The position numbers and the translations under genes were made by a program. Below the pieces are notes generated by a model. It was not told where the DNA came from, did no database searches, and was given only the letters and a program-made list of their open reading frames with translations. A DNA stretch of 63,237 bases, the filler included, from Collodictyon triciliatum (lineage: Eukaryota): the NCBI GenBank assembly GCA_043381765.1. It is 11 parts of 11 records of this genome, joined end to end, with 100 filler letters (N's around TTAATTAATTAA, not from the genome) between each part and the next. Parts side by side here need not be neighbours in the genome. Positions count along the whole stretch, not along the records: positions 5,974 to 11,844 come from JBHJMP010004876.1; 10 more parts are not named here. One strand, written 5' to 3'. Each line of letters starts with the position of its first letter. Positions within the stretch are counted from its first letter, which is position 1. Shown here piece after piece: positions 3,624 through 59,793 of the stretch.

Positions 3624-5283
3624 TTATGAGACGCCCGCACCAGCGCCGATAAATCGGATGGCCTCTGAAACCCCCAGGCTTGCAAACATCTTACCTCTAG
3701 CTACTATTCGACTTTGGAATGCTTTCTGCTCATATCTCATCACATATTTTGCAACCCATGGGTGGGTCAATAGTAGCTTTCGAGAAAGTCGCAGCTTTGG
3801 GTTGGTCCGCATCAAGTTTTGTATGAACGTGGTTGCATCTGTATATAAAAATATATTATCACAGCTTCTATATCCAAGTCAGCGAAAATTAACTCCGTGT
3901 TTCCCCTAGTGGGTCAGTCGAAGTATATAACTCGGTGTGGCCATATGTAAATATAAGGAAATATAGTGATGTCATTCTTGTGTCATGAATGAATTAATCG
4001 ACTAAATATAAGAGATGAGCATAAAATATACATAGACATTAGATGAAATTACCATGGGAGAGCCCATCAGGAAACCTGAGGGTCGGATCTCGTTGTGTTT
4101 GGATTAGTAGTTCATATTCATCTATCCAATTTTCGCCAAAGGGAATGAGCTTCGTAAACATAGAAAAGGTGAGGCATCCAAGGCCCCAATAGTCACTAGA
4201 GTAGTCGTATGTTGGTGCGAAAACAACCTTTTTGTTGTGTTTTTTTAGAAAGAAAGAAAAGAAAGGATAATGACGTATATGATTGAACTATTTCAGACAA
4301 ATGGGTATTGTTCGATGTTTTTTTTTAATGTAATCTTATATTGACTAATACATAGAGGTAATGAGATTTAAAGCTAAATATTTCGCTATCGTTTCTTTAC
4401 TTTTTTTTTATCATTATTGTTATCATCACTACTGCTATTGTTATGGTTAACTCATGTATATTTCGAATATGAGAAATTTACTTCTGGAGCGATATATCCA
4501 GGTGACCCACAAACAAATTGGTATTCCGCTTTAACTGTATAGCAACTGCAACACAGTCCAAAATCACAAAGCTTGACAATACCAGTTTCTTGAACTAAAA
4601 TATTTTCGGGTTTCAGGTCGCGGTGAATAACCCCGTTCTCATGACAATAGTTTAGAGCAAGAATGATCTGAGAAATAATCTTCTTTCCGTCTCGTTCATC
4701 CATGCGCGGGAACGAGTTAATATAAGACAAAAGATCTTCTCCTTGGACAAGCTCCATTACGATATATGTAAAGTCACGGATAGGATCTTCTACGAGCTGG
4801 ATGAGTGTTATGCGTATATGTTTGTATGAGGCCAGAATGAAATGATACGAAGAAGAGGAGAAATATGAACAAGTAGTATTAAATAAGTCTAGGAGGCATC
4901 AGTGATGATATAATTAATCATAGAAAAATGAGAAAATTCAAAATTATTCAACCTCGATGAGCTGGACAATATTTGGGTGATGAAGTCGAGATATTGTATT
5001 GACCTCACGAAGAACATTAATTCGGTCATGAGATTCTAAATGTTCAACATTCCAATCAATCACTTTTGCAGCTACCTAAAAACATGTGCGACAAGTCAGA
5101 TTATTATTATTAATATCATTATTACTATTATCAAACAAGTGAGGGGTTTCTGTTGCTTCTCTTCTGTAATTTATGAATCAGCTCGTATCTTTACCAATAT
5201 TTTTGATGTTTTACTGAAGCACTTCCATACAGTCCCTGTCGATCCATACCCAATAACCTTTAAGAAAACATACTCGTTGATAC
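3624..5283 (-). CDS. Ser/Thr protein kinase, CAMK/AMPK-like (multi-exon; start exon not resolved)
   Basis: Spliced motifs IGYGSTGTVWK, VAAKVID, LHHPNIVQL, IHRDLKPEN, DFG, GSPGYIAPE, SDYWGLG, and RLS...THPWV before the stop at 3624. Confidence 0.9.
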
Positions 5284-5775
5284 CTGTATTAAAACGTCAC
5301 TAAGGTGTGTATTCATGGTGGTTTTTTTTTTAATACCGATAGCAGACACATTCTAGAACGCTATTATGATGGCTGAGATAGAAACATAAGTATTCAATCA
5401 AATGAATATGAAAATGTGACATTTTAGTGAAATAGTACCAGAAATAAGCTGTTGTGGAGGACGAGCAAAGTTGAAGACAGACGTATCGTCTATGATGATG
5501 AAAAATTGGGGGAAAATTAATGTCGTAATATAGCAACCCTATCGAGACACTAAACCCCAAAGTAAAATAGCTATCACAAATACAAACAGAAATGTTGTAG
5601 AACTCATTCATATTCAGCAAAAGTAAAACACGTCCTACATAACGCGAGGAAAAACAGCCTGAAAGAGACTGTGTGTGTGTGTGTGTGTGTGTGGAAAAAG
5701 CGAGACTGTCTTATTATAAGTCATGATAATATTTTTTAAAAAGAAGCCTCTTGTTGCCCCGGATAGTTGACGAAT

Positions 5776-5872
<97 letters not shown>

Positions 5873-5873
5873 C
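5776..5873. repeat. (AAC)n microsatellite at scaffold end
   Basis: Perfect aac run abutting the gap. Confidence 0.95.
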
Positions 5874-5973
5874 NNNNNNNNNNNNNNNNNNNNNNNNNNN
5901 NNNNNNNNNNNNNNNNNTTAATTAATTAANNNNNNNNNNNNNNNNNNNNNNNNNNNNNNNNNNNNNNNNNNNN
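5874..5973. other. Artificial scaffold spacer (44N-TTAATTAATTAA-44N); also at 11845, 17813, 23778, 29743, 35707, 41670, 47630, 53590, 59547
   Basis: Ten identical 100-nt spacers with stops in all six frames; intervening scaffold lengths decrease 5873, 5871, 5868, 5865, 5865, 5864, 5863, 5860, 5860, 5857. Confidence 0.99.
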
Positions 5974-8900
5974 AAAAGTGTTGAGAAATTCGAATACCTG
6001 TATCAATATAAAAAAGACAAAGTAGAGAATAGCTGGTGAGGTGTAGGGAACTACGAAGGCAGTAAACCCAAACACGATTGCTTGTAGGACCCGAACTACA
6101 ACCCACCAGTCATAGTCCTTGAATAAATGTCGTATAGCCATAATAAATTAAAAAATTAAACTATGTCAAACAGGTTTTCTCCTCTTTATTTGATTCGAAT
6201 AGTATGCATAACAGAACGAATACTAAATTACCTCCTCGTAAATAGAATACAGTCGGCCTATCTGAATCTGGCAGACGAGATCAAAGATAGACACGGATAA
6301 ATCTAATCCGCTACTTTTTATGGCGCACTTACTATGAGAAGGCTTCGTTTCTTGTGATTCGCACCCTGATTTTTCTGTCTCCGTCTTTTCGTCCTTTCGA
6401 CTGGGATTTTCTTGTTGAACCTCATTCTGAATTTCAATAAAATGCATGCCTCGTAGCTCATTCATTTCAATATTAACGGGTTCTTCAATATTTTGTACCT
6501 TTAGCTCCTAATCAATTCAAAGTCTCTGTTATTTTTTGCACAAGTATTTATAATTAGAGAAAAATTCAAAGTACGAAAAAATAAACTAGAGCAAAAGAAC
6601 AAATTTATCGATTGAGAGAATGAATGAATATTTTTTTGAACCTTGTAGGTACTATACTCTTCGTGTCTCATCGACCTTGATCTCTTGACAATCAACCAAA
6701 GTGTCATGGGATACGAGAAGAGATATATTAAACCCGGCACAACCGACCCTAACATGATTGCATAATTCTCTGTCATAGGGTTACACTGTATCCACGGGTA
6801 AGTATTGAGAAACCATGATTCCAGCCCTTTATCGTGGAGAGTGCACCCCAGTTTACTCATTACATCTTGAACAACAGAAAAGTAAGTCCCTTCCAAGAAT
6901 ATAAACATCACTGCAACAACTTATTATATTTAATCAAAAATATTAATAGCCTACAGGTGATCGTTATGAAGTTCCAATTACTTAATTTTCGTTACCTTCT
7001 CGACTTTTCTCTTATCCTTCTTTCTAACAAACCTCCTGAGAGCTACATATACTATAATAACTATCGCAGGAATACGCGCAAGATTCATCAATGAGGTAAT
7101 ATGAGGGTGATTTCCCACAAAGCATTCAAGGGTTGGTAATTTGAGTGATACTGCGTTTCCAACAAACTTCCCGGCCACATTAACATCAGGCAATGAAACT
7201 ATGCTCCCCAGTACTTGAAGTATTTGAGTGTAGAACAAAAATATGTCTAATGACGCTATTATTGAAAATAATTCAATTAAGTTAGCATGAAGAAAATTCA
7301 AGAAATGAGTTTCTATTCTAAGAACTTGTTCACGATATGAATATTTAATAAGCTGATAACCTGAATCTTTTTCCTCTTCTTCATTTTCTTTTCCTTCATC
7401 CTCCTGTGTACTTTCTCCAAACCAAGCTGATCCAATTTGCCATATGACTCCAAAGAACAAAATTACAACAAATGCAACAATTTTTGAAATGGAGTAATCT
7501 GATGAACATTCATTGCACTCCCCAGCATCGAAAAGATACCCTTCTTCACATTTTTGACACCCCCTACCAGAGTAGCCCTCCTGGCAAGGGAACACGTAGG
7601 TTCCGTCCTTGATAGACATTCTGTCCTCCATCGAGTTTCCAACATAGAACACGCATGAATCAGGATTCATACACGGAACAATATCACGTATCGTCACAAT
7701 GTTCGGGGTGAAGTAACATTTTTTTAAAGACACACCATCATCGCAATCACATGTCTTTGGGCATTTAATACAATCATTCCCGTAGCCAAAGTATCCAGGT
7801 AAGCATTTGCAAAGCCCATATTCGTGATAGTTTGGATTGATGGAAACTTTCATTTCAGTAAACGCAACCTTTGCTAACACAGATGGGCATATGTATTTAT
7901 CGAAAAAATTACTTAGACTAAAAGGGTTGGTAAAATTCATGAAATTTGGCAAAAATCTGGCCTCATTATGGCTCATGGACGTGTTTTCTAGGCCTAAATA
8001 CTCTAGCTCTGTTAGTCTGCTATACGATTCTGGAATACTCCCAACAATCGGATTTCCAGATAAATCGAGGTAATTCCATCGAGCAAATCTAGTCAGGTCT
8101 CCGAGCTTTGTTATTTCGTTATTTTTCAAGCTTAATTTTTTCACATTTTTGACAAAATCGAATATGCTCCCATCTAATCTTCCATGCAGTTTGTTATCAT
8201 CCATTAAAAGGGTGTGATAAACGTAATCATAGGAGCCTGTTGCCGGTGAAATAAATGAACCAACCTCCCCAGAGAAGAGATTTGCCCTTAAATCAATGAA
8301 CACTAGTGACTCTGAATTCCAAAACAAGTCCGGCATGCTCCCAACAAATTTGTTATTTGATATGGTAAAAGACCTCAAGTATTTCAAATTCTCGAAATTT
8401 TTGGGGATTACTCCACTGAGTTCGTTTCTGGAAAGATCAAGAGCTTCAATCAAGGGGATGTACCAATCAAAGGGAATCGATCCTTTGAGCTTGTTGTTTG
8501 CAACATCCAGTTTGGTCAGCTTAGGGAGATAAATGGATGAAAATGTGTTATTAAGGTTGTTTTTAAAAACAAAGATTTCCTCAATGCCCAAGCAATTGTT
8601 GAAACTTGGTATTCCTCCATGAAGCTCATTTTCATATGCAGAGAATTTGTTCAACACAGGAAGGTTAGAAAATTGTGGAATGGTGCCTATTATTAAAAGA
8701 TACTAAGATTTCTTTGGGAGTGGCAATAGGAAAAATAAATTAATATAAGCGAATGTCTAAAAATGATATACAACAAGATTGAAAATAAAAAGGAGTTAGA
8801 AAATACCCGTTAGAGTGTTAGATGCCAGTTCTAAGAACTTTAATGACGCCAAATTTATGAAGTCAGGGATACTACCTAAGTAAAAAAATCAACCATCCAG

Positions 8901-11241
8901 ATCTTTAATATTCTTTAACTAAATGACAACAACAGGTGGTTTTCATTATTATGTCCCAAATTATTCCAAAAAAAAAAAAACAATCTATCTAAACCTGTTA
9001 ATTTATTATTCGTCATGTAAAGATAGTATAATTTCGGTAAATTACTGAAATTGGGAATCGATCCTGAAATAAGTGACTTTGAGTTCAAATGTGTCCATAC
9101 CATTTTTATAATTACAGACCGAATGTAATACAAAACCCCTTACCTTGAATCTAACAAAGGAAAAGACATATCGAATATATTTATGCTGGTGTATTTGGGT
9201 TCCTACCGATTAATTTATTTCCAGACACATTAATCCCTTCAACCTTCGGGATGTTTGTAAAATCAGGTACGGTTCCTATGGATTGGTGTTAAAAAAATTT
9301 TAAATAAGTATACTTATCTCGATGGTCGAGTATGCAAGACATTAGGATATTGTTGATGATATCGCAACCAATCTCACCGATAAGTTTGTTGCTGTAAATA
9401 GATATCCACTCCAAATTACTCATGAAACGAAAATCAGGTATTGTTCCTTTATATGTTGGTGCTTTAGCAACATGATTTTATACAGATTTTTTTTTTAAAA
9501 AAAAAGAATTAATAACACTTTTGTAATATAATATTCTTAAAAAATGATTTTGGTACCACTCAACCGATTTCCATAAAGATACATCTCCTTCATGAAAGGT
9601 AAGCTATCAAAATCTGGTATCGTCCCTAGTAATTGAAAAGGCTTCGATTTTGGACGAAAATACAATAACAGAAAATTTAATTATAAAGAATTTTTATAAT
9701 TTTACCAGTTAACTGGTTACTAAAAAGAGCCAAGTATTCGATTTTTTTGCAGCCAGTAAAGTTCGGTATGGTTCCTGATTTTAGGTTTTGATTCAGTAAA
9801 ATGATGACAGTTGCACGTTCCCATACAGAATAATATATGTACAGATGAATTTTTGAATGACGAGTGGAATAAAACGGAAAAAAAAATCTACAGAAAATTT
9901 TTTAAATGAGAAATACGTACCATCCAACTCGTTCTCACTCAAATATAATCTCTTTATTTGTGGTATGTCCTTGAAATCAGGTATTGTACCTTAACAAACG
10001 GTTGTAAGCAAAGAGGAAAGAACAAAGAAATATCGATCTTCAGCAGTCTTTGAGTGGGATTATTGCAAATAAAATGGAAGCTATCGATTCGTTTCTATAC
10101 CATTGAAATTATTGTCGCTAAGATACATGTATACGACGCTGCTGATAGAACTGAATTCGGTTAATGTGCCTGTATTGATTGTTATTGAAATTTTTATGGA
10201 TGAAACCAAATCTTATCTAAATTAAAATTTTAATTAAAACGATCACAAAAATCTATTGGTAAAGTCTCGACGCCTTCATATTCGAACTAATTGGATAGTT
10301 ATCAATTTCAGTGACTTAGGAATTAGGTACCATGAAGTTGATTAGAACTCAGGTGAATTAAAACTGTGTCCTTAATGCTCTGAAAATTCGGAATCGTCCC
10401 TAAAATTTAGTATAATTTGTTATCAAAAGGTTTATCTGGTTAAAGAGGATTTTTCTCGCCGAATGACTATGTTAAACTGAATATGTCCTGCTCAATTTAT
10501 TGGCAAATAATGACAAATATATGAGACTTGGTAAGTTACTAAAATCGGGTATTGGTCCTGGAATACATATAATGGTATATTGTGATGAGTGATTGTGTTA
10601 TTTCGATAGTATCTAGATAATCACACCAGATATCTATGATGCTGTTGCATTGTGTTGTTGTGCTTACCGCTCATTTGGTTTCTGCTTATGGCCAGTTCTT
10701 GTAGATTCTGTATACCTTGGAAATCGGGCACCGTGCCTGCGATTCATATAATAATTTTGAGCGTTTATCCACACCATTTGACTAGATTATTTCCTGTGAT
10801 GAAGCCTATTCATTTTGAACTGAGTCATTATACCGCTTAATTGGTTGTTGAAGAGGAAAGAATTGCAAGATTTGGTAAGTTGCTGAAATTTGGTATCCAT
10901 CCCAGAAGCGAAATCATTTTATAGTGTGCCATGTGATTGAATGGTGTTGATAGCAATTGAGTAAGAGGACCAAATAATAAAGGGAAAATATATCAGGGCT
11001 TGTGCTTACCACTCATTTGATTTCTTCCAAATCCCAATGTATTCACACTCGGTATGCCTTGAAAATCAGGTATTGTACCTATAATGGGGACATATATTTT
11101 ATTGATGAAATGCATTATGGTATTAATCTATTTCCGATGATGATAGCTTTTATTAATTAATGTAATATGTACCGCTTAATTGATTGTCATAGAGGTACAA
11201 TACTGTGAGTATTGGTAAGTTGCTGAAATCAGGAACTTGAC
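5974..11241 (-). CDS. Cell-surface receptor: plant-type LRR ectodomain + Cys-rich/EGF-like region + multi-pass TM domain (partial at both ends)
   Basis: 14 one-LRR micro-exons (8807-11241). A large exon from 8686 carries more GxIP...LxLxxN repeats, CKCLPGYFG and CQEGYSGRGCQKCEEGY, then hydrophobic helices continuing through exons near 6645-6920, 6232-6498 and ~5990-6118 (LYSIYEE|DYDWWVVV). Confidence 0.85.
8807..11241 (-). repeat. Array of 14 phase-1/phase-1 LRR micro-exons (69 nt, 23 aa each; one 68 nt)
   Basis: Exons at 11173-11241, 11010-11078, 10834-10901, 10668-10736, 10489-10557, 10331-10399, 10101-10169, 9921-9989, 9706-9774, 9557-9625, 9378-9446, 9207-9275, 8995-9063, 8807-8875; consensus G-x-[IV]-P-[DN]-F-xx-[LI]-xx-[LIV]-xx-[LI]-x-[LI]-xx-N-x-[LM]-x. 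Confidence 0.92.
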
Positions 11242-11944
11242 CTGAATCAAAACGACACATAACCAGTAGTCAGACGCCAGAATAAATCCTTTGGTTATTT
11301 ATGCGACCATTCTATCGATATCATACTTTTTTATGATTCCTTTCAATTTTGTGCAAGATGGTGAAGATGTTGGCTTCGGCTCGCTATCCATCATTTGCAT
11401 GGACGCAATTTGGTGGACAGGTGGCGGAGAAGTAGTCGGTAATCAGGAACGAGGACTTTGAGGGATATTTTGGCTGCTTTAAGCATTCGAGTACCTACGA
11501 AGATACTGCAATAAAAGAAGATGTTTATGAAGATGTTGCCAACCAGCAGTCTGCGGATAATGCATTTAGCAGCGAAACAATGTAAGTTTTTTTTGTTATT
11601 AAAAGGTTGATTAAAAATATTTGTACTTCACTTTATAAAAATATTGGCGGGGAAAGCTTATGACGAGTTCGACAAAGAAATCACGTGACTCATACGGACC
11701 TAATTCTTCATTTCGTATTCAGTTGACATGGTCTCTGCATATCAAAGGCCATTATTGACATTAAAACTTCATATATTTTCATTTCTCATCCATCTTCTTT
11801 CTTGTCCTTTTCTTTTCTTTTCTTTTCTTTTCTTTTCTTTTCTTNNNNNNNNNNNNNNNNNNNNNNNNNNNNNNNNNNNNNNNNNNNNTTAATTAATTAA
11901 NNNNNNNNNNNNNNNNNNNNNNNNNNNNNNNNNNNNNNNNNNNN

Positions 11945-12146
11945 GTTATGTTATGTTATGTTATGTTATGTTATGTTATGTTATGTTATGTTATGTTATG
12001 TTATGTTATGTTATGTTATGTTATGTTATGTTATGTTATGGTTTGTTTTGTTTTGCTTTGTTTTGCTTTGTTCTGTTTTGTTCTGTTTTGTTCTGTTTTG
12101 TTCTGTTTTGTTCTGTTTTGTTCTGTTTTGTTCTGTTTTGTTCTGT
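11945..12146. repeat. (GTTAT)n followed by (GTTCT/GTTTT)n pentamer microsatellites
   Basis: Direct tandem repeats at scaffold start. Confidence 0.95.
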
Positions 12147-17518: not shown

Positions 17519-17912
17519 CTAGAGAAGGTGACCACTTTGTGAGTAAGAGAGCCCACAAGTTTGGGTCTGGCTCAGCCACGCAAAAGTGATGAACAAGACC
17601 ACAATCAAAAATAGAAAGACTATGCCTGAGCAGGCCTCGATGTCGTCTTCTCTCTTTTTCTCTCTTTTTCTCTCTTTTTCTCTCTTTTTCTCTCTTTTTC
17701 TCTCTTTTTCTCTCTTGTTTTTCTTGTTTTTCTTGTTTTTCTTGTTTTTCTTGTTTTTCTTGTTTTTCTTGTTTTTCTTGTTTTTCTTGTTTTTCTTGTT
17801 TTTCTTGTTTTTNNNNNNNNNNNNNNNNNNNNNNNNNNNNNNNNNNNNNNNNNNNNTTAATTAATTAANNNNNNNNNNNNNNNNNNNNNNNNNNNNNNNN
17901 NNNNNNNNNNNN

Positions 17913-23564: not shown

Positions 23565-23900
23565 TTGATGTTGTTACGACGCTCAAACCGCCTCCCTTTT
23601 GTTTTTGTTTTTGTTTTGATTTTTTGTTTTTGTTTTTATTTTTATTATTTTTTATTTTTGTTTTAATGTTTGTTTGTTTTTGTTTTTTTTTTGTCTGTTT
23701 GTTTGTCTGTTTGTTTGTCTGTTTGTTTGTTTTGTTTTGTTTTGTTTTGTTTTGTTTTGTTTTGTTTTGTTTTGTTTNNNNNNNNNNNNNNNNNNNNNNN
23801 NNNNNNNNNNNNNNNNNNNNNTTAATTAATTAANNNNNNNNNNNNNNNNNNNNNNNNNNNNNNNNNNNNNNNNNNNNAAAAAAAATAAGATTTAAAACAC

Positions 23901-23932
<32 letters not shown>

Positions 23933-24001
23933 AAAGGAAAAAAAAAAAAAGAAAAGAAAAGAGAAAGAAAAAAACCAAGAAACGAAAAGAAAAGAACTAA
24001 C

Positions 24002-27000
24002 CTATCCATCTTATGGCTACTAAGCGAGCGTAAGCGGTCTTTAGCAGCTTTATAACCGCCCTTCAATGACAACTCGAAGTAGTAAGTAGCCATGGTTGGA
24101 TTCACTTCCACAAAAACTCCCTCGTCATAAGACAACCCAACCAAATAAGCCGCCCTCGGGTGTTTCGGCTTACTCACAATCAAGTCATCAGCAAGTTCGC
24201 GCAGAACCTGCAGTGCCCCCTGATTTCCCGCTTTCACTCCATCCCATAGGCGAGTGTGTGGCTCCTCGGCTTCCGGGTTGGCCATTATGGCCCATCTGTA
24301 CGCCTTCAACTTGTCTACAGGCTTTGTCCAGCCATTCTCGTAGCATTCCGACATTAACTTTGCTGCGGCAGGGTATCTAATCTTATCAAATCTCTTCAAC
24401 TTGGATAGATTTTCAAGCTCTTCGAACGCATCTACACTCCCCTTTTGAAGCATTTCCCGCAACTCATCAAAAAGACTGATATTTTTGCCCTCGTGTATCA
24501 TGGACACTAGTGTCATGAGGTATTGTTTGGATGATGTTGTTGATGGTGATGAGGATGCATGGGTGGTAGAGGTGTCTTTTGGTGGCTCTTTGAGTAATTC
24601 TGATAGAGACTTTGCGGCCGATGGATTGATGGCCTGATTGAAATCTGTCTTTGTTGCAAAACTAATTGCTAGGCTGATTGCTTCCTTGTGTCCGCTCTTT
24701 GCCATACTCACAATATCTTCCATAGATTCTTTCAATCCAAGTTCCACTGATTTTTCCAATAGACTCAGAGCCTCAGCAGGATTGGCTGGTGAATAAAGTC
24801 CTTTGTAGCGACAGTAGGATATTTCCCGAAGAGCACGCCTTTGGATTTTCGGTTTATCTGCATTTCTGGATGCATGCAAAATCAAATTATAAACGTCCTC
24901 ATCCAAGGCTTCCAATGTCTTTCGAATGTATATCCAGAGCTCGCTGGACTCTGGTTCTGCGATACACCGAATCTTGATGGTATTTGTTAGAGACTTTTCT
25001 GTACCCCAGCCATTCTCATAGCATCGTGCAAGTGTTATCAAAGCTAACCTCTGGAATTCATTTGGCTCGGTGCGACCCTGATGCGCCACAGCGAAGATGA
25101 TACCAAAAGCTTCAGACTTGCCTGCTTTTGCTTCGGCCTCGGCTTCCTCTAATCCAAGAGAGTTTTGATTTTGTACGAGCGACCGAATTCTCTGCATTTT
25201 TGTAAAGTTTGAGCTATTCATCCCCACAAAAAATCCATTTTGTTCTATGGTTCCCAACCGAGTTTCGATATCAGGCTCAATATAACAGTAGTGATTTGTG
25301 CCTACAACTTCTTTCAAGTAGAATGCAGACAGTTGAAACCCTTTCCTGAGCAATGCCGAAAGGAAACGAACAGCCTCTGGAGATCCCATGACCGCAGCTC
25401 TTCCGAAGTAATGGGTGGCCTCTTCTAAATCCACAATACCGATCCAGCCTTCATAGTATCCTCTTCCTAACTCCAACTGCAATTGTCGAGATATTGTTGT
25501 TTCTAGCTTCTTCTCACCAGAGAGGCTAAGCAATCTGTCCAATGCAGTTTTATTTCCCTCTTGGCAGAGTTGCACCAGCTCCCCAAGTGCATGTAGCGAC
25601 CCTCTCTTTACAAACTCGCTCAGTTTCCTCACTCCCTCGTCAACGTTTTTTTGAACAAACCAACCTTTAAAATAGCATTTGCACAGTAAAATTTCTGCAA
25701 GATATATATGGGATGTTGTTGATGTCGACCTGGAAAGTACATCACGAATTGCAGAGTACGCTCCTCTATTTTGGTTCTCCAAGAGTTCGGATAATATAGT
25801 AATACCAAATCCATCATCACTTTCTATAAGGCTCTTACCCACTACAACCCAATCTGAGTCGCTAAGAATCGCCTCCTGTTTAAACGCCGGGTCTGAGGCA
25901 ATAGACTTACATAGTGATAGATATTTAAGTCGGCCGTTTTTTTCTTTCACCGAAATTACTCTTTTCAGTATCTGAATTGCACTTTCTTCATGACACATGG
26001 TGCGCTCCACGAGGTTTTCCCATGCGCCCTTTTGATTTTTTGCAAGTATCATCTCAAAGTATGTTGTGGCTTTTACAAAGTCAGGAGAAGTTCCTATTCC
26101 CTGTTCAAATATAGTCATCAACATTTCCGCCAAATCGATATATTTGTAGTCCTCACAAGAGTATCTCTGATTCACGTAATACTCTAAAAACTCAACAACG
26201 TAAAATCTGCCTTCCTCCACATATTTTTTGAATACCTCTTTAAGATTTTGACTATGTATTGGAATTTGAGATAAAAATAAAGCAGCTTTTTCCAAACTTT
26301 CTGGAGTAGGTGATGTGCCCATCAAAGCTTCCAACATCATCCACAAACTCTCTTCTAGAGTATTCTGATGTTTCATTAGATTATATAGGACCGCTCTTTT
26401 TAGTATCCTCACCACACATTCTTCTTTTTTCTTCATTAATCTTTTTAAATTAGGAAAGAAGACACTATCCTCTTTAGAAAGATATTCGTAAATTGACGCA
26501 GCAATATCCAAGTTCTGAGTTACACCGACTCCATACTCGTACATTTCAGCCAAGTACGGAAGAATCGGCGAATTGGATGAATCCTTCTTCCACATCTCTA
26601 AAAATTCAATTTTGTCTTTGTTCATTATATTTGCGATTGGGTTTGGGGTAAGAGGGTGCCTTTTAAGCCCTCTACTACATTCTAAAAGCAAACCTGCACG
26701 GACTAAGTTCTGTAAAATGCTATTCCACTTGAAACGCTTCGCTGATCTATCATTTCTTGTATAGAAAAGCGTCATATTTGAAAATATGTCTGCTAGATTA
26801 TGTCGTATTGGTCCTGAGCTGATTTCATAGAAATGTTCATCAATTGCACACCCTCCTTGATTCTTGATAAACTTGACATCATCTTCACTTTTGAACGTGC
26901 AATCAAAAAATGATGATTCGGAGAAGCAATTATGACGTTGCCGTGGTCGATGAAGCCCGTCCAGGGTTATATTTGGGGTGCTATCCTCAAATTTTTTGCA

Positions 27001-29540
27001 ATCTTCATCAGAGGTAAAAATTGCTACGAGTTCGGTACCATTGTATAGGTTATTTTCCTTCAAATAGAGATAGTTTCTTCTTATTGGGTTAGAGAAGCGC
27101 CCAGTCGTCGACGAGCATATTGATATAGAACAGTCTGAGAGTATAAAGAGTAAACTTGGGTCGCGATTCGATGATTTGCAATAGATGACAGATACTATCT
27201 CGCATGCAGATTGAAATACTCCTACAGTTGCCTCTGTCAATGGATTCCATACGTAAATTGTTCCCTCGGTTGTGTGAATCACTTGGCAATTGATATTATC
27301 CTTTATGTATTCAACAAGGAAAATTGTGTTTGTTGAACGAGGTGTCGTTCTCCACACCATATCGCCACCCCATTCACCATAGAAAAATGGATGACCAATC
27401 TCATACCTCGGTAGGTTCCCAATGTAGCTTGACTCCATGTCGCACTTGAAAAAGAAGCAATCACCGAAATCAGCACCAATCATAAAACAATTCTTGAAAG
27501 TACAATTGAAGAATTTAATGTGTCGTAAACTTCCGTTTGAGATTATGGAATTCTCGAAAACAACTTGATGAAACTCTTGATGGTCTATAGTCGAACCAGA
27601 TAAGCATAAGATAGATAGAGCATTACCTGCAGCCACGGACATTGAGGGACAATTTTCAGCAGTTGTTATGATTTCAAGAATTTTTTCTTTTGAAGTCTTA
27701 CAATTTAACACCTTATTTGCTATCTTGTCGATTTGGTATTTTTCTAGTGGTTCAGATATGAACTTTAGCAAATTTTCGCTTTGTGCGCTTGTAGAAGATT
27801 TTCTCATCATCGCTAGATTGTATTTTGGATCTGTAATGTGTTTGAAATCTAGGAGGTTTTTTTCATCAGGGGTAGCGTTTTTCTTGGATGAAAGTAAGCG
27901 AGCATGTTTGCCAATGCGATAGGTACCCCCTCTAAATAAGTGTGTTCCATTAGAGTTTGCCTGGCTGAGAATTGAAACGGTGCCTTTCCATAGATCACCA
28001 GGGGTAAATTTTGCTGATTGGATTAACTCATTCAAAATATCTACAAGAAGGGGGCTCAAGTCTATCTTTTTCACATGCATATCCAATCTTCTAAGTATGT
28101 TATCTAAGAACTCAATTGCTGATGCAAAGAGTTCTTCGCTATGTTTTCTTCGTAAGATTTCGATCCGAAAGAGCTCTGAAGCCCACACAATTGGAGGATA
28201 TTCTGCATCAGAATCGATAAGCTTGATAAAATACTCTTCGAAATCCATAAATAATCCGTTCGTCAATAAAATGTGTGCATCAATTAGTTGATAGACCCAC
28301 GCTGGACTTTCCACAGGACATCTGGACAGGGTGTTTCTCATATTATTAAGAAGAATGAAAACGGACCGCTCGAAAGAAAAGTTCTCTAACAGCATCAAAC
28401 CCAATGTTAACTCTTGGCTAGCATCGTACGTGTCATGATCGATTTCTTGGTTTCCCATTCTACGAAGGGCATATATCTGAATTTGTAGTAAAGAATTTGA
28501 GAAAGGGTCTAGAGTCATCTCAAGTTCCCTACTTAGCGAGTCAGACAATTGAATTGCTCGCTTCGATATGTGAAAAGGGAATTTAATGCACGAAAAAGCT
28601 CCCAATAAAAATATCTTTGCCATGGGAAACATGTAATGCTTGTTAGTAAGATGCCATCTTGGTGGGTTTTGGTTTCCAAAATCGATAACTTTTTCAATGA
28701 CACTACTTAGGTTACAAATCGTGCACTGCTTGCGTATAAACTTTGGTAAAATACTTGAAAGATTTTGAAGTGTTTTGTGCTCAAATAGCACACTCTCACA
28801 TTGTTTCACAATTGCACCCATAAAGTCTGTGGCGTGTATTGGATTTTCAACAAAATCTACACACATCAACAAATCAATGGACTTTGTGTCTACACCCAAT
28901 TTTTGTTCTGTTGTCATTCTTTTCGTCCTAATTTCATTGGATATGCGTAAAAGTTCGACAGGATCACTGGGCATGATCAATTGAGCTACACTCGCAACTA
29001 CATTGCGTCTGAAATGCCTGCTACTTGTGGGTGGATAATATAGATTTGTCAAGACTGCTTGCGGTGCGTTGTGGAAAACATGATTCATGAAAGCAATGAT
29101 AGTTGGGGTAGAATCTTCGTCGACAATAGGATCTCTCTGGTCAAACTTGAGTGAGTTCAAAACGTCTTTTACATCGCCTTCATTATTACCGTCTTCATTT
29201 ATCATGAAATCGGGTGGTTCATGAACCGCAGCAGGTAATCGGATTAGTCGGCCATGGCATTCTCCCTCGTTTTGTTCTCCAAAATCAATATGAAGCTCAA
29301 AATTAGTCGATATATATTCTGATATTGCTTCATAGCTCATCTCATACCAATGCCGGTCTAAAGGAGGCTCAATTGGCTCGGTTAACACAATATCCCAGGA
29401 CTCAAAAGTCTCATTAAAATAATATAGCGTAATTTCATCGTCATTTAGGACAAAAGCGATATGCCTGGTTGTATTGGTGCGTATTGGGACTTCATACATT
29501 CGGAAAAGGTATATCAGCGAATCAGTTTGCAAACCGATTT
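24002..29540 (-). CDS. Very large protein (single ~5.5-kb exon) with helical/TPR-like region, pentapeptide repeats, beta-rich segment and multiple Sel1-like repeats; partial
   Basis: AAGNALSILCLSG...FENSIISNGSLRHIKFFNCTFKNCFMIGADFGDCFF (pentapeptide); LAEMYEYGVGVTQN, LGRGYYEGW, LARCYENGWGTEKS, VGLSYDEGVFVEVNPTMATYYFELS (Sel1). Confidence 0.8.
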
Positions 29541-32500
29541 CTAAGTAAATAATGATAAATAAGAATAAGAATAAAACCGAATTGAATTGAATTGAATTAT
29601 GACTTAGTATGCGGAAAACTCTAATATCAGGGTTAATCTCAAGTATGTGTTTTATGTGTTTTATGTGTTTTATGTGTTTTATGTGTTTTATGTGTTTTAT
29701 GTGTTTTATGTGTTTTATGTGTTTTATGTGTTTTATGTGTTTNNNNNNNNNNNNNNNNNNNNNNNNNNNNNNNNNNNNNNNNNNNNTTAATTAATTAANN
29801 NNNNNNNNNNNNNNNNNNNNNNNNNNNNNNNNNNNNNNNNNNACTCATATATTTTAATATTTTCACTTTATTACAAATTTATTTCAATTTTTTGATTTCT
29901 TCAGCACCACACCCATGGCACAAACCTCTCAAGTTTTGCTACGAGAAAGAGATTGGGATGTGAGCTTTCCTCCCTTTGTAAATCCTCGACAATCATAAAT
30001 AAAGACTCAAACCGTAACTTCTTTCCTTTTAGGTATGCATCGAATACCCATGACAGGTTTGGTTGAGACTATCTCAACGATTAGGAGTGTATTTGGCCGA
30101 GTGAAATTGTAGGGTTTTTTTTCATCTAAATGTGTTCGTTGAACTAATAGCATTAAAAATAAATATGAAAAGTATATATTTAGTGTATTCTCTTTACTTC
30201 CATGCAAATCAGTGGCCTTTTTTATTATCAAAAACCAATATAATGTTAAATTTGTACTCTTGATTTAGTTCATGCGGATGCACTGCGCATGTGTCTGGAC
30301 TTTCTCAATAGATATCATCCAATCGGTCGAAGCGATGATTTTTGATAATCAGGGCGAACTCCTATGCAAAGTGTGTGTTCACGATGTAAATTCATCAGCA
30401 GCCAAAAAAGTCTGCAAAGCGTGTTTTCTGCTCGATAGCCTTATCGCGTGCCTCCAAAACTTGCCGTTGGAAAGACTAAGAAATGGGTTTGCCTTTCCCA
30501 TTTTCTTTTGTTGTAAATAAGTGGCACTTTCATTTCTTCGCTTTTACTGTCATTTTTTTCCGATCAGAACTTATTTGACACCAAATACTATCAGCAGTAT
30601 TCTGAGCAATATATTTCTCCTTTTTCCGAGTCGCAAGGATTGGCGCATCTGTCGTTTTTTAATTACATCAGAACAGTCATTTACCGAGTACAGTGCAGAG
30701 TCATCAATGAAGAGGCTCGATGCCAAACACAAGATAAACATCAAGTTTTTAGAATGTAGATTAGAACTTTAAAACCCCCGATATCAAACGAATAATTACT
30801 TTTTCGAATGATTTTGATTCTATTATCCTTGAACTTCGATATTTACTCGCAAGAGGAGATGATTATTTTTTTTATTTGCTTGGCTAATCTATATTAGTGA
30901 TGCTTTGAGTTCATTGATCGATTGATAGACGCTGCAATATTCGGTCGCAGCGATGAGCAACCGTTTCACAAAGAAACACAACATAATCCTAGCAACTGGA
31001 AACATGTATCGCATATCCGCATTCAGTCGACGTCATAAGCTGCGAAAGGTGGCGAGAAATAGGCACTTGTGCATCGGGGATTGCGCTCCGAGACAAGAAA
31101 GAATGAGAAAAATAAAATATTTATCTTGCATGAAAGGTATAAGAAAACAGAAAAATTGTATTCTCTTGCACATCGACGATGAATGATGTGCGGCAGATTG
31201 GATTTTGGACGATGCACTTTTCTCACTTTCATGGCAGAGAAACTTTTGCAAGATGCACCTGGCCATGCAAACAACATGCGGATGAGGCTGGAAAATATCA
31301 TCTAATCCAGTGCTTGGAAAAAAAAATTAGCTCGATGGAATCAAAGAGGCGTCTTGTATGGATATAATTGCCGAGTATATGACAAAACAGTTGGGCACTT
31401 GGAGATGAATAAATATCGACAGTTCAATTAAGCTTCCGATTCTGATTGTAACATATAAATATATATTGGTAACAACTGCAGACTTACTTTGATTTTTAGA
31501 GGGCTCTGACGGCGATGGCGCTGTATGGGTCGGGCGTGTATCCTTATCGGCGTGTATGTTACTATTATTTGAACAAGAAAGATGGTTTCATTCTTTTCCT
31601 GATTGTTTTTAAGTCATTTACACACAAAGCACCCAAACAATGGCTTCGAAGTTATGTTTTTCTGGTCCAAACGAGAATATGTATATCTCTTCATGCGCTT
31701 TATTTAAAGGTAGGTTGTATATAGTGTTCGTACATGAAGGAATAATCAAAAGAGTTCAATTATATACGATTACATTAGAAGGTGTCCCTCTTATTCGGCT
31801 AGAGGACGAAAAATGTGCTGCAGATGGTGTGGTGGACATTTACTTCAATGTAAATCGCTTCTCCACTAGTTAAGCATGCGACCGATTGGGTAGGAATGCC
31901 TTTTTGGATGATTTCCTTGTTGTACTGACCATCACCTCCGCTAAATATGAATAAAGAAGGATCGTTTTCATATTTGCTTGTTTTCAAAACATGTTCTCAC
32001 AAACTTATACTGACAGCGACCTTAAATATAGAAGAGAATATACCTTACAGTTTTATTATTTAGCAGCAGTATACATAAAAGAAAATAAATTACGCTTCAC
32101 AACAACTAATATCATGCATCCGATATTGTAGAGCGCTGGATATCAAGCAAAAGCTCATGGTTACTTGTAGCCGAATTGTGTTTAACAATCTCTAGAGGTT
32201 TTTTTTTTCAATATTTACTCATTTCAGTCTGAAAAAAATATTGAAACAGGAATTATGACCATGTTAGTCTCTTTTTCAAGTTCAGATTGTCTGATTTTTT
32301 CTATTTGTCAAATTTTCCTAATTACCTGGGCGATGATTTCATTTTCATTCGTGTATGAAAAAATCATGATTGGTAGTCTATTGAATGAGCAAACTAACCC
32401 ACTGCATCATTTCCTATTTCTCCACTGGAAACAATAAAGGCAACTCGTTGAAGCTTTTCCCACTGTATGACAGCATCTCGATTCAGTGCGCAAAATATAT

Positions 32501-35706: not shown

Positions 35707-36646
35707 NNNNNNNNNNNNNNNNNNNNNNNNNNNNNNNNNNNNNNNNNNNNTTAATTAATTAANNNNNNNNNNNNNNNNNNNNNNNNNNNNNNNNNNNNNN
35801 NNNNNNTTCTTCTTTTTTCTTCTTTTTTCTTCTTTTTTCTTCTTTTTTCTTCTTTTTTCTTCTTTTTTCTTCTTTTTTCTTCTTTTTTCTTCTTTTTTCT
35901 TCTTTTCTTATTTTTCTTCTTTTTCTTTTTCTTCGGTCTCATTCAGCCTGTAAATCGATAAACTTCATTACAAAGGCTGTGGCGAACTTGGTTTTATCCC
36001 TTTCAAGACATAACAATTTTTATACAACAAAAGTGTGCACATTTATAGCAGTTTATTACACAGGAAACCATCGAATTAAATCTGGATTGACGAAAGCAAG
36101 AGCTTTGATGAATCCAAGAAGCAACTTGAATAATATAATAGTATGATTGGTATATAATGAGGTTAAAAAATATTTAATAATATCAATCTATTCACGTAAT
36201 CAATTTATATTTTATTTTCCATTCTGTAATATTAATTCAAAAATTCAAGATTACAAACAAGCCCTTTCCTTGGCCCAGACAGAACCCAACCTATCATCAT
36301 GCCACCAAACATTCATTTCAAAAAAGCATACTATCCACACTTGCGGCGGTAATCATGTTGTTTGGGGCCGATATGATGATTTTCAGTCGCAATGGCTATA
36401 CGGCCGTCATTTCAAACTCGCCGAATCGGCTCTCAGGGATTAGTCTCAAATCACTTATAAAAAAAAACTTGGTGTGTTTGTTTGCCACAATGCGCACATT
36501 TTGAAAGTCTCGGTAGATGCTTAATTTTACATAAATTGATTTTATGTAGTTTTTTTTTTTTATTACATCGACTGATTGTTTAAAATTTTATTAAAATTGA
36601 AAACTCGGTAGTTTACTATAGGAAAAAGTAAAACAAAGACTTTCAG

Positions 36647-39727: not shown

Positions 39728-40758
39728 TTAGAACTCCACAGTAATAAGGTCGGATGGACATTCCTTCGTCTCGATGAACTCGGCATATTTGGCACAGCCC
39801 AAATACCAGACATAAGCAGCACCAACTACGCAGACGTGCCACCACTGATGGCTATGGAACTATAGAAAGTACAACGAGAAAAACAAAGTAAAAAGGAAGA
39901 AGAAAAAGGAGAAAGAATAGAAAAAAAAATGGTAGGAGGGATTTGTAAATGAAAAAAAATGTGAAATCATATTTTGGATTCACTTTACTTATCTACAAAG
40001 GTCAAACTCACCCAGATGTCAAATCGGCCAGGAATCCAGCACTCTGGGAACGCTGTCAGGTAAAAGAACAGGCCGATGCCGTACAACACAAACATCCCGA
40101 TAACATATCCCAGAAACATATCGCGCTCCTGGGCAGGCGCCAGCATGAGCCAATGGACAGACGGAATGATGCCCGAGAGAGTCATGGATATGTATATCAT
40201 TTGGCGATAGCGCTCGTTTTCAGGACGATGCATAAACTCGAGATAAGCCGCCAGAATACTGGCTCCAGCGAAGATGCAGATGCCTACAAGATAAGTCCAG
40301 ACCCAGTGGGTGTAGCAGTAGAAGCCGAGGTAGATAACCGGGAAGAATGAGGCGCAGATCTGAGCGGAAATCCCACACATGTCCAGCTTGAGAAAGCGGA
40401 AGAAAGCATGGTACGAGTGGCAGTTGAGGAGATGGTAGAGAACGGAAAAGCACATGCAGAGTTGCACCCCGCCAAGGTACAGCATCAAGATGTAGTTTTG
40501 CGCACCCGAGTCATAAAATCCGGTCCATATCACACGCCCAAGTGCAAACAGATTCAGCACCGTGAAGAGTCCGAGACCCGCAAGGTGAGTCCAGCAGTTT
40601 CCTGTCTCGTTGTGGACTCGAAACAGACTCTGGAAGCAGCGGTCGAACGAATAATACAGGCGGTATCCGTGTAAGATGTACGGACGGCGCCAGAGTTCTG
40701 GGATGGACCCGGCCGAAAGCAGCGGGAAAAGCTCTTCGTGCGGCATTGGATTGTTCAT
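39728..40758 (-). CDS. PAQR/AdipoR (HlyIII family) membrane protein; N-terminus probably extends upstream
   Basis: YILHGYR, SLFRVHNETGNCWTH, SVLYHLLNCHS, LDMCGIS, PECWIPGRFDIW | FHSHQWWHVCV (second exon ~39728-39859). Confidence 0.93.
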
Positions 40759-41596
40759 GGGATTGCAGTCTGCATCGCAGGTTCCGAAGGCGCTCGTTGG
40801 GTGGCATTCCTCGGCGACTGCTTGGTCCTCAAGAGGTGGCTGTTGGCGTCCGCTCGGCCTCGCTGGGTTTGGGGTGCGCCGCTTCTGTTGCTTTTGGGTG
40901 CGGATTACTCGATTTTGTGAGTATTTTTGGAATCTTTATATTTGGTTTAAGTTTTTATTGAGTTTTTCTGTGGGTATTTTTGAGGTCTTTATGTTGGTTT
41001 TGTCTTCTTTTCTTTTTTTTTTTAATAATAAATGAACTAGAAATCCTTTAGGTAATCGGCTACCTTGACCCGAAGTCGTACTGACCCAACCATTTCCTCT
41101 CTGCTTTTCAATTTTTAGGGGGTAGCTTTGCATTAAATAAGTTTTTCTCTTTTTTTCTTCTTCTCTTTTCTCTTTTTCTCTCTTTTTCTCTCTTTTTCTC
41201 TCTTTTTCTCTCTTTTTCTCTCTTTTTCTCTCTTTTTCTCTCTTTTTCTCTCTTTTTCTCTCTTTTTCTCCCTTTTTCTCTCTTATTTCTTCTTTTCTTC
41301 TTTTCTTCTTCTTCTTTTCTCTCTCTCTCTCTCTCCTTTTTTTTTCTTTTTTTCTTTTTTTCTTTTTTTCTTTTTTTCTTTTTTCCTCTTCTCAGAAGTC
41401 TTTGGAACACGAGCAGATGCGTTTGTTGGGTTTGACAGTTCGACTGATTTCCCCGTTGGATTTCCAATTTTTGTGGTTGTTAATATAACCCATAACATCG
41501 ACATTAATTTTCTATTTATGGATGAGGTTGAAACATACTAGAATTATCAAAATTCATTTTTGTGGAAAATAGAGCAAAGCCTGAAAACTGTTTTGA

Positions 41597-41669
<73 letters not shown>

Positions 41670-41769
41670 NNNNNNNNNNNNNNNNNNNNNNNNNNNNNNN
41701 NNNNNNNNNNNNNTTAATTAATTAANNNNNNNNNNNNNNNNNNNNNNNNNNNNNNNNNNNNNNNNNNNN

Positions 41770-47470: not shown

Positions 47471-47748
47471 ACGAAAGTATATTTGATATTGACCAGACTT
47501 TGTAATGTTCATATATATATGTTCATATTTGAACTGGTCACAAATTCACTATACGCATAAATGTTGTGTTCATTATTCCATCAAAATGCCACTTTCTTTC
47601 TCGTCTCTTTTTTAATGGAGTTTACTTCANNNNNNNNNNNNNNNNNNNNNNNNNNNNNNNNNNNNNNNNNNNNTTAATTAATTAANNNNNNNNNNNNNNN
47701 NNNNNNNNNNNNNNNNNNNNNNNNNNNNNGGCTATATTCTATGATCAT

Positions 47749-53408: not shown

Positions 53409-53864
53409 GTAGTCTCCACGTATATTGCGCTATATTATACCCCTAGCTCCTATACTCAAGCATCAATTTGTTTCCTTGGCTACATATATCATTGATCAGT
53501 GAAAAATAAAAGCCCCCCCACCATCCCACACACAAACCCACACACACACACACAAACCTCCACACAAACACCCACACACACACACACACNNNNNNNNNNN
53601 NNNNNNNNNNNNNNNNNNNNNNNNNNNNNNNNNTTAATTAATTAANNNNNNNNNNNNNNNNNNNNNNNNNNNNNNNNNNNNNNNNNNNNTTCTTTTTTTA
53701 TTCTTTTTTTATTCTTTTTTTATTCTTTTTTTATTCTTTTTTTATTCTTTTTTTATTCTTTTTTTATTCTTTTTTTATTCTTTTTTTACTGCTCACGAGG
53801 GTTTGAACGCACTCATTCCGGTTGACTATGTGCTAAATCAAATTTTTAATTTTGCTGCCAATAG

Positions 53865-59546: not shown

Positions 59547-59793
59547 NNNNNNNNNNNNNNNNNNNNNNNNNNNNNNNNNNNNNNNNNNNNTTAATTAATT
59601 AANNNNNNNNNNNNNNNNNNNNNNNNNNNNNNNNNNNNNNNNNNNNCATATTTTTTTTTTTTTTTGTTTTTTTAATTTTTTTTTTTTTTTTTTTTTTCCC
59701 CCCAATATTTTTTTTTTTTTTTTTTTTTTTTTTTGTAAAATATTCAAATATATTTGACACTGAAAAAAACACCTTTGTATTTTGACTGCCTAG

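Follow-up and report, generated by a model that had tools for sequence, protein, structure and literature searches.

The closest precedent for the gene described here is found in the brown algae, in the exons that encode the leucine-rich repeats (LRRs) of ROCO proteins. In the passages concerned, PMC11378527 describes ROCO genes of Ectocarpus and Saccharina in which each LRR is one 72-bp phase-2 exon and mentions, for two ROCO genes of Ectocarpus, splice variants that differ in their LRR content; the relevant passage of PMC3341825 describes defective LRR/TPR exon copies left in Ectocarpus introns. For Ectocarpus, 'highly dynamic exon shuffling' has been proposed. For plants, a passage of PMC5902711 states that ER genes have many exons. 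Here we analysed a minus-strand LRR gene of the CRuMs protist Collodictyon triciliatum (assembly GCA_043381765.1), which lies on contig JBHJMP010004876.1 within a window of 63,237 nucleotides (nt), the window being the whole stretch of DNA that was analysed. An original prediction, made from the sequence of this DNA alone, had seen in the gene an array of one-repeat exons feeding a multi-pass membrane receptor and had named plant ERECTA-type kinases and the brown-algal ROCO genes as precedents for one LRR per exon; the ROCO precedent is confirmed by both ROCO sources in the passages cited. We find a genuine, transcribed and modular array of 12 live exons and two fossils; in the best reading it is the ancient outcome of exon duplication and permits slow, in-frame gain and loss of repeats.

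With the ROCO arrays the locus has in common one LRR per exon, a uniform exon length and phase, defective copies in introns and a candidate recognition role. The exons here are of 69 nt and phase 1, whereas those of ROCO are of 72 bp and phase 2, and the LRRs are predicted to be extracellular on a multi-pass membrane protein; no ROC-COR GTPase was found by Pfam on the open reading frames (ORFs) of the contig, from which the gene ends are missing, and the homologues carry a stalk and a membrane domain in place of ROC-COR. A further difference lies in the state of the exons, which here are old and diverged and have no opposite-strand copies, and no splice variants were seen, the first ten exons (E1-E10) being without RNA cover.

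The analysed piece (5974-11844, 5.9 kb) is cut at both ends, and the gene is therefore a fragment. Its single-LRR array occupies 8807-11241 on the minus strand. A mechanical scan, which required an AG, 69 nt open in the frame that completes the Gly codon, a last base G and then a GT, found exactly 12 exons between 11241 and 8807, and a DNA profile built from these 12 exons and their splice flanks scored them at E values of 5e-16 to 6e-11. The exons are as follows:

11173..11241, minus strand: E1, 69-nt single-LRR exon (GQVPDFSNLPILTVLYLYDNQLS), phase 1 at both ends; scan and DNA profile
11010..11078, minus strand: E2, single-LRR exon; scan and DNA profile
10668..10736, minus strand: E3, single-LRR exon; scan and DNA profile
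10331..10399, minus strand: E4, single-LRR exon; scan and DNA profile
10101..10169, minus strand: E5, single-LRR exon; scan and DNA profile
9921..9989, minus strand: E6, single-LRR exon; scan and DNA profile
9706..9774, minus strand: E7, single-LRR exon; scan and DNA profile
9557..9625, minus strand: E8, single-LRR exon; scan and DNA profile
9378..9446, minus strand: E9, single-LRR exon; scan and DNA profile
9207..9275, minus strand: E10, single-LRR exon; scan and DNA profile
8995..9063, minus strand: E11, single-LRR exon; an RNA contig links its final 13 bases to E12
8807..8875, minus strand: E12, single-LRR exon; joined to E13 in an RNA contig

All 12 exons are of 69 nt, encode 23 amino acids (aa) with one LRR each, are in phase 1 on both sides with a G|GN split of the Gly codon, and have AG/GT sites, so that the predicted layout of one 23-aa LRR per exon, cut at phase 1 inside the Gly codon, held for every exon of the scan. 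The number of exons had been put at 14; here the layout stood and the count did not, since 12 are intact and the other two are the defective units A and B described below. The three peptides quoted in the prediction are those of E1, E2 and E7. The exon peptides follow the motif G-(T/S)-(I/V)-P-(D/N)-F-x-x-(L/I)-x-x-(L/V)-x-x-L-x-L-x-x-N-x-L-x, in which G1, F6 and N20 are kept in 12/12 exons and P4 in 11/12. When the scan was run as a control over the whole window and both strands it gave 33 matches, i.e., the 12 in the 2.4-kb array and 21 elsewhere, in which inspection by eye revealed no LRR motif; such matches are heavily concentrated in the array (12/33 within 2.4 kb). In addition, the DNA profile found no LRR unit on the opposite strand, nor elsewhere in the window, below E = 1, and tblastn of the family proteins (P0122-P0248) against the window gave 1182 matches, all of them on the minus strand within 5900-11300.

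Nine of the array introns measure 80-161 nt, close to the roughly 90-160 nt predicted, which fits most of them and fails for introns 2 and 3 (273 and 268 nt); the intron between E12 and E13 has 120 nt. An in-frame stop is met upon retention in 12/12 introns, and intron retention is therefore unproductive. Because all exons are of 69 nt and phase 1-1, any subset of them is skippable in frame, as had been foreseen, and the two relic units provide evolutionary cases of such a loss. Although the DNA is AT-rich, no stop interrupts the 12 x 23 + 442 codons from E1 to E13.

Four public runs were compared with the window; X3, a freshwater metatranscriptome, is the single RNA run, and the others, X1, X2 and X5 among them, are DNA metagenomes. 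The search of public runs found the gene present in small shares only. Two X3 contigs lie on the gene; each of them is spliced and is identical to the window at 99% or more. The first joins 7255 to 7361 and confirms an intron of 105 nt downstream of the array. The second runs from 8685 directly to 8806, the E12/E13 joint foreseen from the sequence, and carries 11 more letters that, together with the preceding two, match the 3' end of E11 exactly (13/13); this 13-letter string occurs nowhere else in the window, and among the other exon ends the best agreement is 11/13. Transcription of the gene thus takes place in nature, splicing follows the predicted phase-1 boundaries at both array joints seen, and the exons are linked in the order E11-E12-E13.

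Beside the 12 exons, the DNA profile finds two extra units, with E values of 1.4e-10 and 5.2e-07, both of which are defective:

10834..10901, minus strand: relic unit A, inside intron 2; 68 nt, with a one-base deletion, a frameshift and GG for the AG acceptor
10489..10557, minus strand: relic unit B, lying in intron 3; its frame is open and its AG acceptor present, but it ends in A, with GG at the place of the GT donor

The second half of the repeat in unit A is out of frame owing to the missing base, and in unit B the nearest GT downstream is 11 nt away and, if used, would put the frame out. The two units occupy the two sole long introns of the array. A contig of the DNA metagenome run X2 (rec14), which covers 10424-10574 (151 nt, 7 differences, ~95% identity, depth 2.1), differs from the window at 10489 and 10487, where its gene strand reads G and T and gives a canonical ...G|GT at unit B. 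Unit B thus goes back to a working exon, one that appears to be intact in a close relative or paralogue, and with a canonical donor in rec14 exon content seems to differ between close relatives. Judged by their sequence, units A and B show exon loss in frame during evolution, a slow process.

Exon-to-exon nucleotide identity ranges from 44 to 69%, and the highest identities fall within a group of E1, A, B and E11 and within a separate group of E2, E3 and E6. The spacers of the array show no alignable similarity to one another (best local score 17) and share no conserved intron elements. Because the exons are only 44-69% identical and the spacers unalignable, there has been no recent duplication, conversion or homogenisation; the grouping of exons and relics may be a trace of an ancient duplication that involved a block of two exons (E1-E2, A-E3, B-E4). 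The DNA metagenome runs also gave short contigs that are 90-99% identical to parts of the gene, and the ten differences that they show in E13 comprise 5 synonymous and 5 non-synonymous ones, including one stop, too few to weigh. One DNA contig of run X1 joins 9552 to 10219, which skips 666 letters and would delete E5-E8, but has only 21 letters on its shorter side, and we therefore treat this joint as a lead only; joints of this kind often come from other organisms or repeats.

The downstream LRRs sit, as originally predicted, in one large exon, E13 at 8686-7361, over which the RNA contig is unbroken at 8515-8685. A tblastn search with two homologues from Diphylleia showed that the gene continues via further exons to 5974, with ~41% identity over the stalk and membrane domain. 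The features downstream of the array are as follows:

7361..8686, minus strand: E13, 1326 nt (442 codons); at least 7 LRRs, Cys-rich stalk, first membrane helix and acidic loop
7256..7360, minus strand: intron, 105 nt, GT-AG, phase 1; removed in the RNA contig
6996..7255, minus strand: E14, membrane helices 2-3; 3' boundary not clear-cut, and the unspliced frame meets a stop at 6978-6980
6642..6920, minus strand: E15 (ends approximate); helix 4, outer loop with conserved Cys (GCTLHDKG..WFLN..PWIQC) and helix 5
6232..6507, minus strand: E16 (5' end approximate); a loop of low conservation, with the donor site at 6232
5974..6117, minus strand: E17, helices 6-7; cut by the contig end

About 16 conserved Cys lie in the stalk of E13. 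The intron at 7360-7256 is an in-frame stretch of a long ORF, and the E16/E17 junction is canonical (6232|6117, 114 nt). Joining E14 to E15 in the manner of the homologues needs GT..AA or TA..AG, the same mRNA resulting from either, and a DNA contig of run X1 (6834-7077, 244 nt, 0 differences) has the same letters at this junction. An assembly error of one base could account for the anomaly, as could a genuine defect or an unusual splice site. In Diphylleia rotans, short transcript forms of three genes stop exactly at the junction of the third and fourth transmembrane helices (TM3/TM4; pairs P0147/P0236, P0135/P0230 and P0134/P0256); an intron may often be retained at this point, with truncated receptors as the product. 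In a metagenome ORF (P0130, 456 aa, on a contig of 1790 nt) the long ORF begins 8 residues ahead of a GTIPSF repeat aligned with the start of E13, which suggests the same intron position in a relative.

The LRR part of the gene matches the Pfam families LRR_8, LRR_1 and LRR_4, and the gene's ORFs match LRR families only. Its search gave 1901 proteins at E<=0.001 among 8000 scored, with plant receptor-like proteins (RLPs) and receptor-like kinases (RLKs) as the best matches (EIX, RLP12, GSO1 and others), in the LRRs only; the 120 matches listed show 23-35% identity over 25-52% of the E13 query. The non-LRR part, searched against 1.84 billion representatives, gave 96 matches at E<=1e-3, 39 at <=1e-10 and 7 at <=1e-30, and 29 of its matches are divided by taxon into 20 D. 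rotans transcripts, 2 sequences of Rigifila ramosa, 1 of Planoprotostelium fungivorum, 1 of Rhodelphis marinus and 5 from metagenomes without a taxon. The two best, with 48% and 45% identity, are from D. rotans, whose family members (EukProt EP00002) have the same stalk, the same membrane domain and GTIP.F repeats; in total the relatives of the gene comprise some 30 or more D. rotans transcripts. Across the family (n = 33), LRRNT_2 is found in 9 members, DUF7630 in the stalk of 15, NIDO in 3 and FG-GAP in 4.

The stalk and membrane domain of a homologue, P0122, was modelled with AlphaFold2 from a 33-row alignment. The model (pLDDT 80.5, pTM 0.78) has about 9-10 long helices and a small beta-structured outer loop that contains Cys. 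Foldseek of this model against the PDB gave 0/406 rows at E<=0.001, the best row of a G protein-coupled receptor (GPCR) standing at E 0.65 and prob 0.13, a result that is no evidence against a GPCR or TRP fold. A VIA wide search with the model peaked at Z 8.6 on 118 residues and placed 2 chains at Z>=8, values that fall in the noise range of helical models, and a PDB sequence search with P0122 returned short matches to designed propeller proteins only. The TRP family PF06011, which we take to be fungal and protist Flc/Pkd2-like membrane proteins, matches PRP84213.1 of Planoprotostelium (P0156) at 30.1 bits against a cut-off of 28.5 and a D. rotans member (P0139) at 19.1 bits (E = 6.5e-4), and it is found on 12% of the members of an Atlas neighbour cluster. 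This weak link suggests that the membrane domain may be distantly related to TRP/Flc-like channels, a lead rather than a result. The GPCR-like body of the original prediction found no support, as the model has about 9-10 membrane helices, no solved fold matches it significantly and the sole family link is the weak one to PF06011.

Like the ectodomains of plant RLPs and RLKs, the gene has the motif L..L.L..N.L(S/T)G.IP, and family members have plant-type N-caps (LRRNT_2 in 9/33). Plant-type (PS) LRRs have a period of 24 residues, whereas the repeat period here is 23 aa; moreover, there is no kinase, and a Cys-rich stalk with ~9-10 helices takes the place of a single-pass anchor, so that the likeness is limited to the LRRs. 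The PF06011 TRP proteins likewise have a multi-pass membrane domain behind a large outer domain, but two of the 33 family members match that family and none of the window ORFs does, and no solved structure resembles the model. Compared with the D. rotans family, which is known from transcripts only, the N-terminal NIDO and FG-GAP modules of some members are unseen on this contig. Dscam exon arrays and lamprey VLR cassettes resemble the array in having repeated modules that might in principle be put together in varied ways; unlike them, the single 5.9-kb contig studied here shows no near-identical alternative exon blocks, selector elements or flanking cassette store.

Taken with the above, we consider it likely that this is an old, intron-rich and expressed LRR gene whose exons are constitutively spliced and whose modular layout acts on evolutionary time. 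The protein would be a large surface protein that combines a plant-type LRR ectodomain, a Cys-rich stalk (DUF7630-like) and a multi-pass membrane domain. Its N-terminal LRR solenoid would have arisen from old tandem duplications of a symmetric phase-1 69-nt exon, each exon supplying one 23-aa repeat that is cut inside the Gly of the G-T/S-I-P-D/N-F turn, and the 12 intact exons would most likely be spliced constitutively into one main mRNA. Whole repeats would be gained by duplication and, as the relics show, lost by splice-site decay, with the frame intact, and the two decayed exons would now lie silent inside introns. The LRR arc may bind an outside ligand (prey, microbe or mate) and the signal may then be passed on to the membrane domain, possibly a channel.

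Several points weigh against this reading. The gene start and the last ~100 residues of the family lie beyond the contig. At the E14/E15 junction (6921-6995) there is no frame-keeping GT/GC-AG intron, and given this junction the gene may be damaged or its product truncated. Of the 13 array-related joints the RNA covers 3, namely E12/E13, a single intron further downstream and, through 13 bases, E11/E12, and X3 gives no cover of E1-E10 and hence is silent on their skipping or expression. The isoform comparison reported below used de novo Trinity contigs of another species in clusters of 90% identity, in which cassette variants could be missed. The intact donor of unit B was seen in a single contig of depth 2.1, which could be a paralogue, and some of the metagenome contigs of 90-95% identity may likewise come from paralogues or pseudogenes. 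Finally, PF06011 is found in 2/33 family members at E<=0.01 and is absent from the window's own ORFs.

The first alternative is diversification by splicing, in which the 12 cassette exons would be skipped in varied subsets to give many receptor variants, as proposed for brown-algal ROCO genes. Every exon is suited to this by its length and phase, the two Ectocarpus ROCO genes with 72-bp symmetric LRR exons yield splice variants in the passage of PMC11378527, and the three joints seen in RNA leave most of the array uncovered. We nevertheless regard it as unlikely, as the sole RNA contig over the array runs from E11 through E12 into E13, the introns are short (80-161 nt) with canonical sites at 12/12 exons, and the spacers share no conserved intron elements. 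In addition, 33 Trinity isoform pairs from D. rotans clusters showed no clean internal gain or loss of whole 23/24-aa repeats in the LRR part (0/33 with a clean n x 23-aa indel). Where the members of a pair differed, they did so by truncated ends, by short indels of 5-12 aa or within the membrane domain, and messy alignments from partial ORFs were counted neither way (P0124/P0220, P0238/P0153, P0222/P0125, P0264/P0140 and P0243/P0128). This null result is weak evidence against diversification, short-read assemblies of repeats being unreliable and the clusters being incomplete sets of isoforms. Nothing in the present data supports combinatorial splicing or recombination for E1-E10, and the combinatorial recognition system put forward as a possibility in the original prediction found no support in the order of E11-E12-E13 in RNA, the isoform pairs, the exon identities of 44-69% and the lack of opposite-strand units.

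A broader reading, again an unlikely one, is that diphylleid predators have a lineage-specific recognition system in which the repeat content of dozens of LRR-stalk-channel-like genes differs from strain to strain and from one mRNA to another, with a regulated stop at TM3/TM4 adding short anchor-only forms. Under that reading exon B would be alive in one strain and dead in another, and E5-E8 would possibly be missing in a third.

Slightly harder to sustain is the possibility that the gene is decaying or truncated, its function being lost, and that it makes at most a short protein with LRRs, stalk and three membrane helices, which we think improbable. The two dead exons and the broken E14/E15 junction speak for it; at this junction no GT/GC-AG intron keeps the frame, the unspliced stop comes five codons past the expected donor, the identical X1 contig has the same letters, and the short forms of the three D. 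rotans genes end at the same place. Against it, the frame stays open through E1-E13 in spite of the AT-rich DNA, the downstream exons are still open and ~41% identical to the homologues, the gene is transcribed and correctly spliced at three joints, and a one-base assembly slip explains E14/E15 equally well. Diversification at the DNA level, with LRR exons shuffled, converted or somatically assembled as in lamprey VLRs or by Ectocarpus exon shuffling, is very improbable, for although the intronic relics resemble the non-coding LRR/TPR exon copies of Ectocarpus (in the passage of PMC3341825) and the X1 joint from 9552 to 10219 would remove E5-E8, the diverged exons and unalignable spacers tell of no recent duplication or conversion, no profile unit lies on the opposite strand or elsewhere in the window, the tblastn matches of the family proteins are confined to the minus strand of this gene, and joints such as that of X1 are often due to other organisms or repeats.

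The old, constitutively spliced LRR gene that we favour lies in a window of 11 contigs of ~5.86 kb in falling length order, between which stands the linker N44-TTAATTAATTAA-N44. The parts of the window are separate contigs, and synteny across the linkers is therefore not assumable. The linkers and the flank of the array are:

5874-5973, 11845-11944, 17813-17912, 23778-23877, 29743-29842, 35707-35806, 41670-41769, 47630-47729, 53590-53689 and 59547-59646: window linkers (100 nt each)
11242..11844, minus strand: 603 nt upstream of E1, to the contig end; a gene start or signal peptide was sought here and none was identified

A hydrophobic frame ending in ...SIFV G|GT near 11497 was considered as a first exon and not adopted, being without a start codon. 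Just upstream of E1, at 11336-11500, the depth of DNA metagenome contigs rises to 171 (X1) and 38 (X5); the contigs behind this jump show 4-8 differences, no Rfam family lies at the site, and it may be a repeat or a conserved element of other organisms. The Rfam search of the contig gave one microRNA-like match, below threshold (24.9 bits vs 111). Microsatellites of the types (GTT)n, (TTCTT)n, (GTTAT)n and (GTTCT)n stand at contig ends, e.g., at 5700-5873, 11780-11844 and 11945-12140, and probably explain the assembly breaks. On other contigs of the window, a protein kinase domain is spread over at least 2 ORFs at 4039-4898 on the minus strand (Pkinase, E 4.4e-33) and is not part of the LRR gene, and a MYB-like ORF at 703-1839 lies across a linker; neither can be assumed to be its neighbour. 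An open frame of 1986 codons (23830-29790, minus strand) occupies nearly a whole contig, and a search with its residues 300-1300 found no relative among 7995 scored candidates. An intron-less ORF of the PAQR/haemolysin-III type (316 aa, 39985-40935, minus strand) has as its sole database match a D. rotans transcript that carries PF03006, with 59% identity; as a taxon marker it agrees with the matches of the LRR gene's non-LRR part in making a relative of Diphylleia the probable source.

Outside the window, an alignment search found 8 metagenome loci that match 24 residues of the Cys motif (63%, E 2e-4 to 4e-4), which were not counted as relatives, and a single-protein scan of metagenome contigs for related DNA loci matched 579 stretches, none of which was confirmed. 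A literature search on CRuMs and leucine-rich repeats found no paper on this receptor family, LRR-RLKs being the subject of the corresponding passage in PMC13091385, and a search joining PF06011 and leucine-rich found no paper.

One-LRR-per-exon arrays in brown algae have been used in an argument for immune-type receptor diversification. The presence of this layout, together with relic exons, in a CRuMs protist shows that it originates anew in each lineage whose LRR solenoids are enlarged through the duplication of exons, and here it is borne by a different protein, with extracellular LRRs on a multi-pass membrane body, and has a different phase and length. The gene also flags an uncharacterised receptor family that is expanded in Diphylleia and whose membrane domain has no solved relative. 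If the unlikely reading of a lineage-specific recognition system in diphylleid predators were true, the family would represent a receptor-diversity strategy on a new LRR-gated multi-pass protein, outside plants, animals and brown algae.

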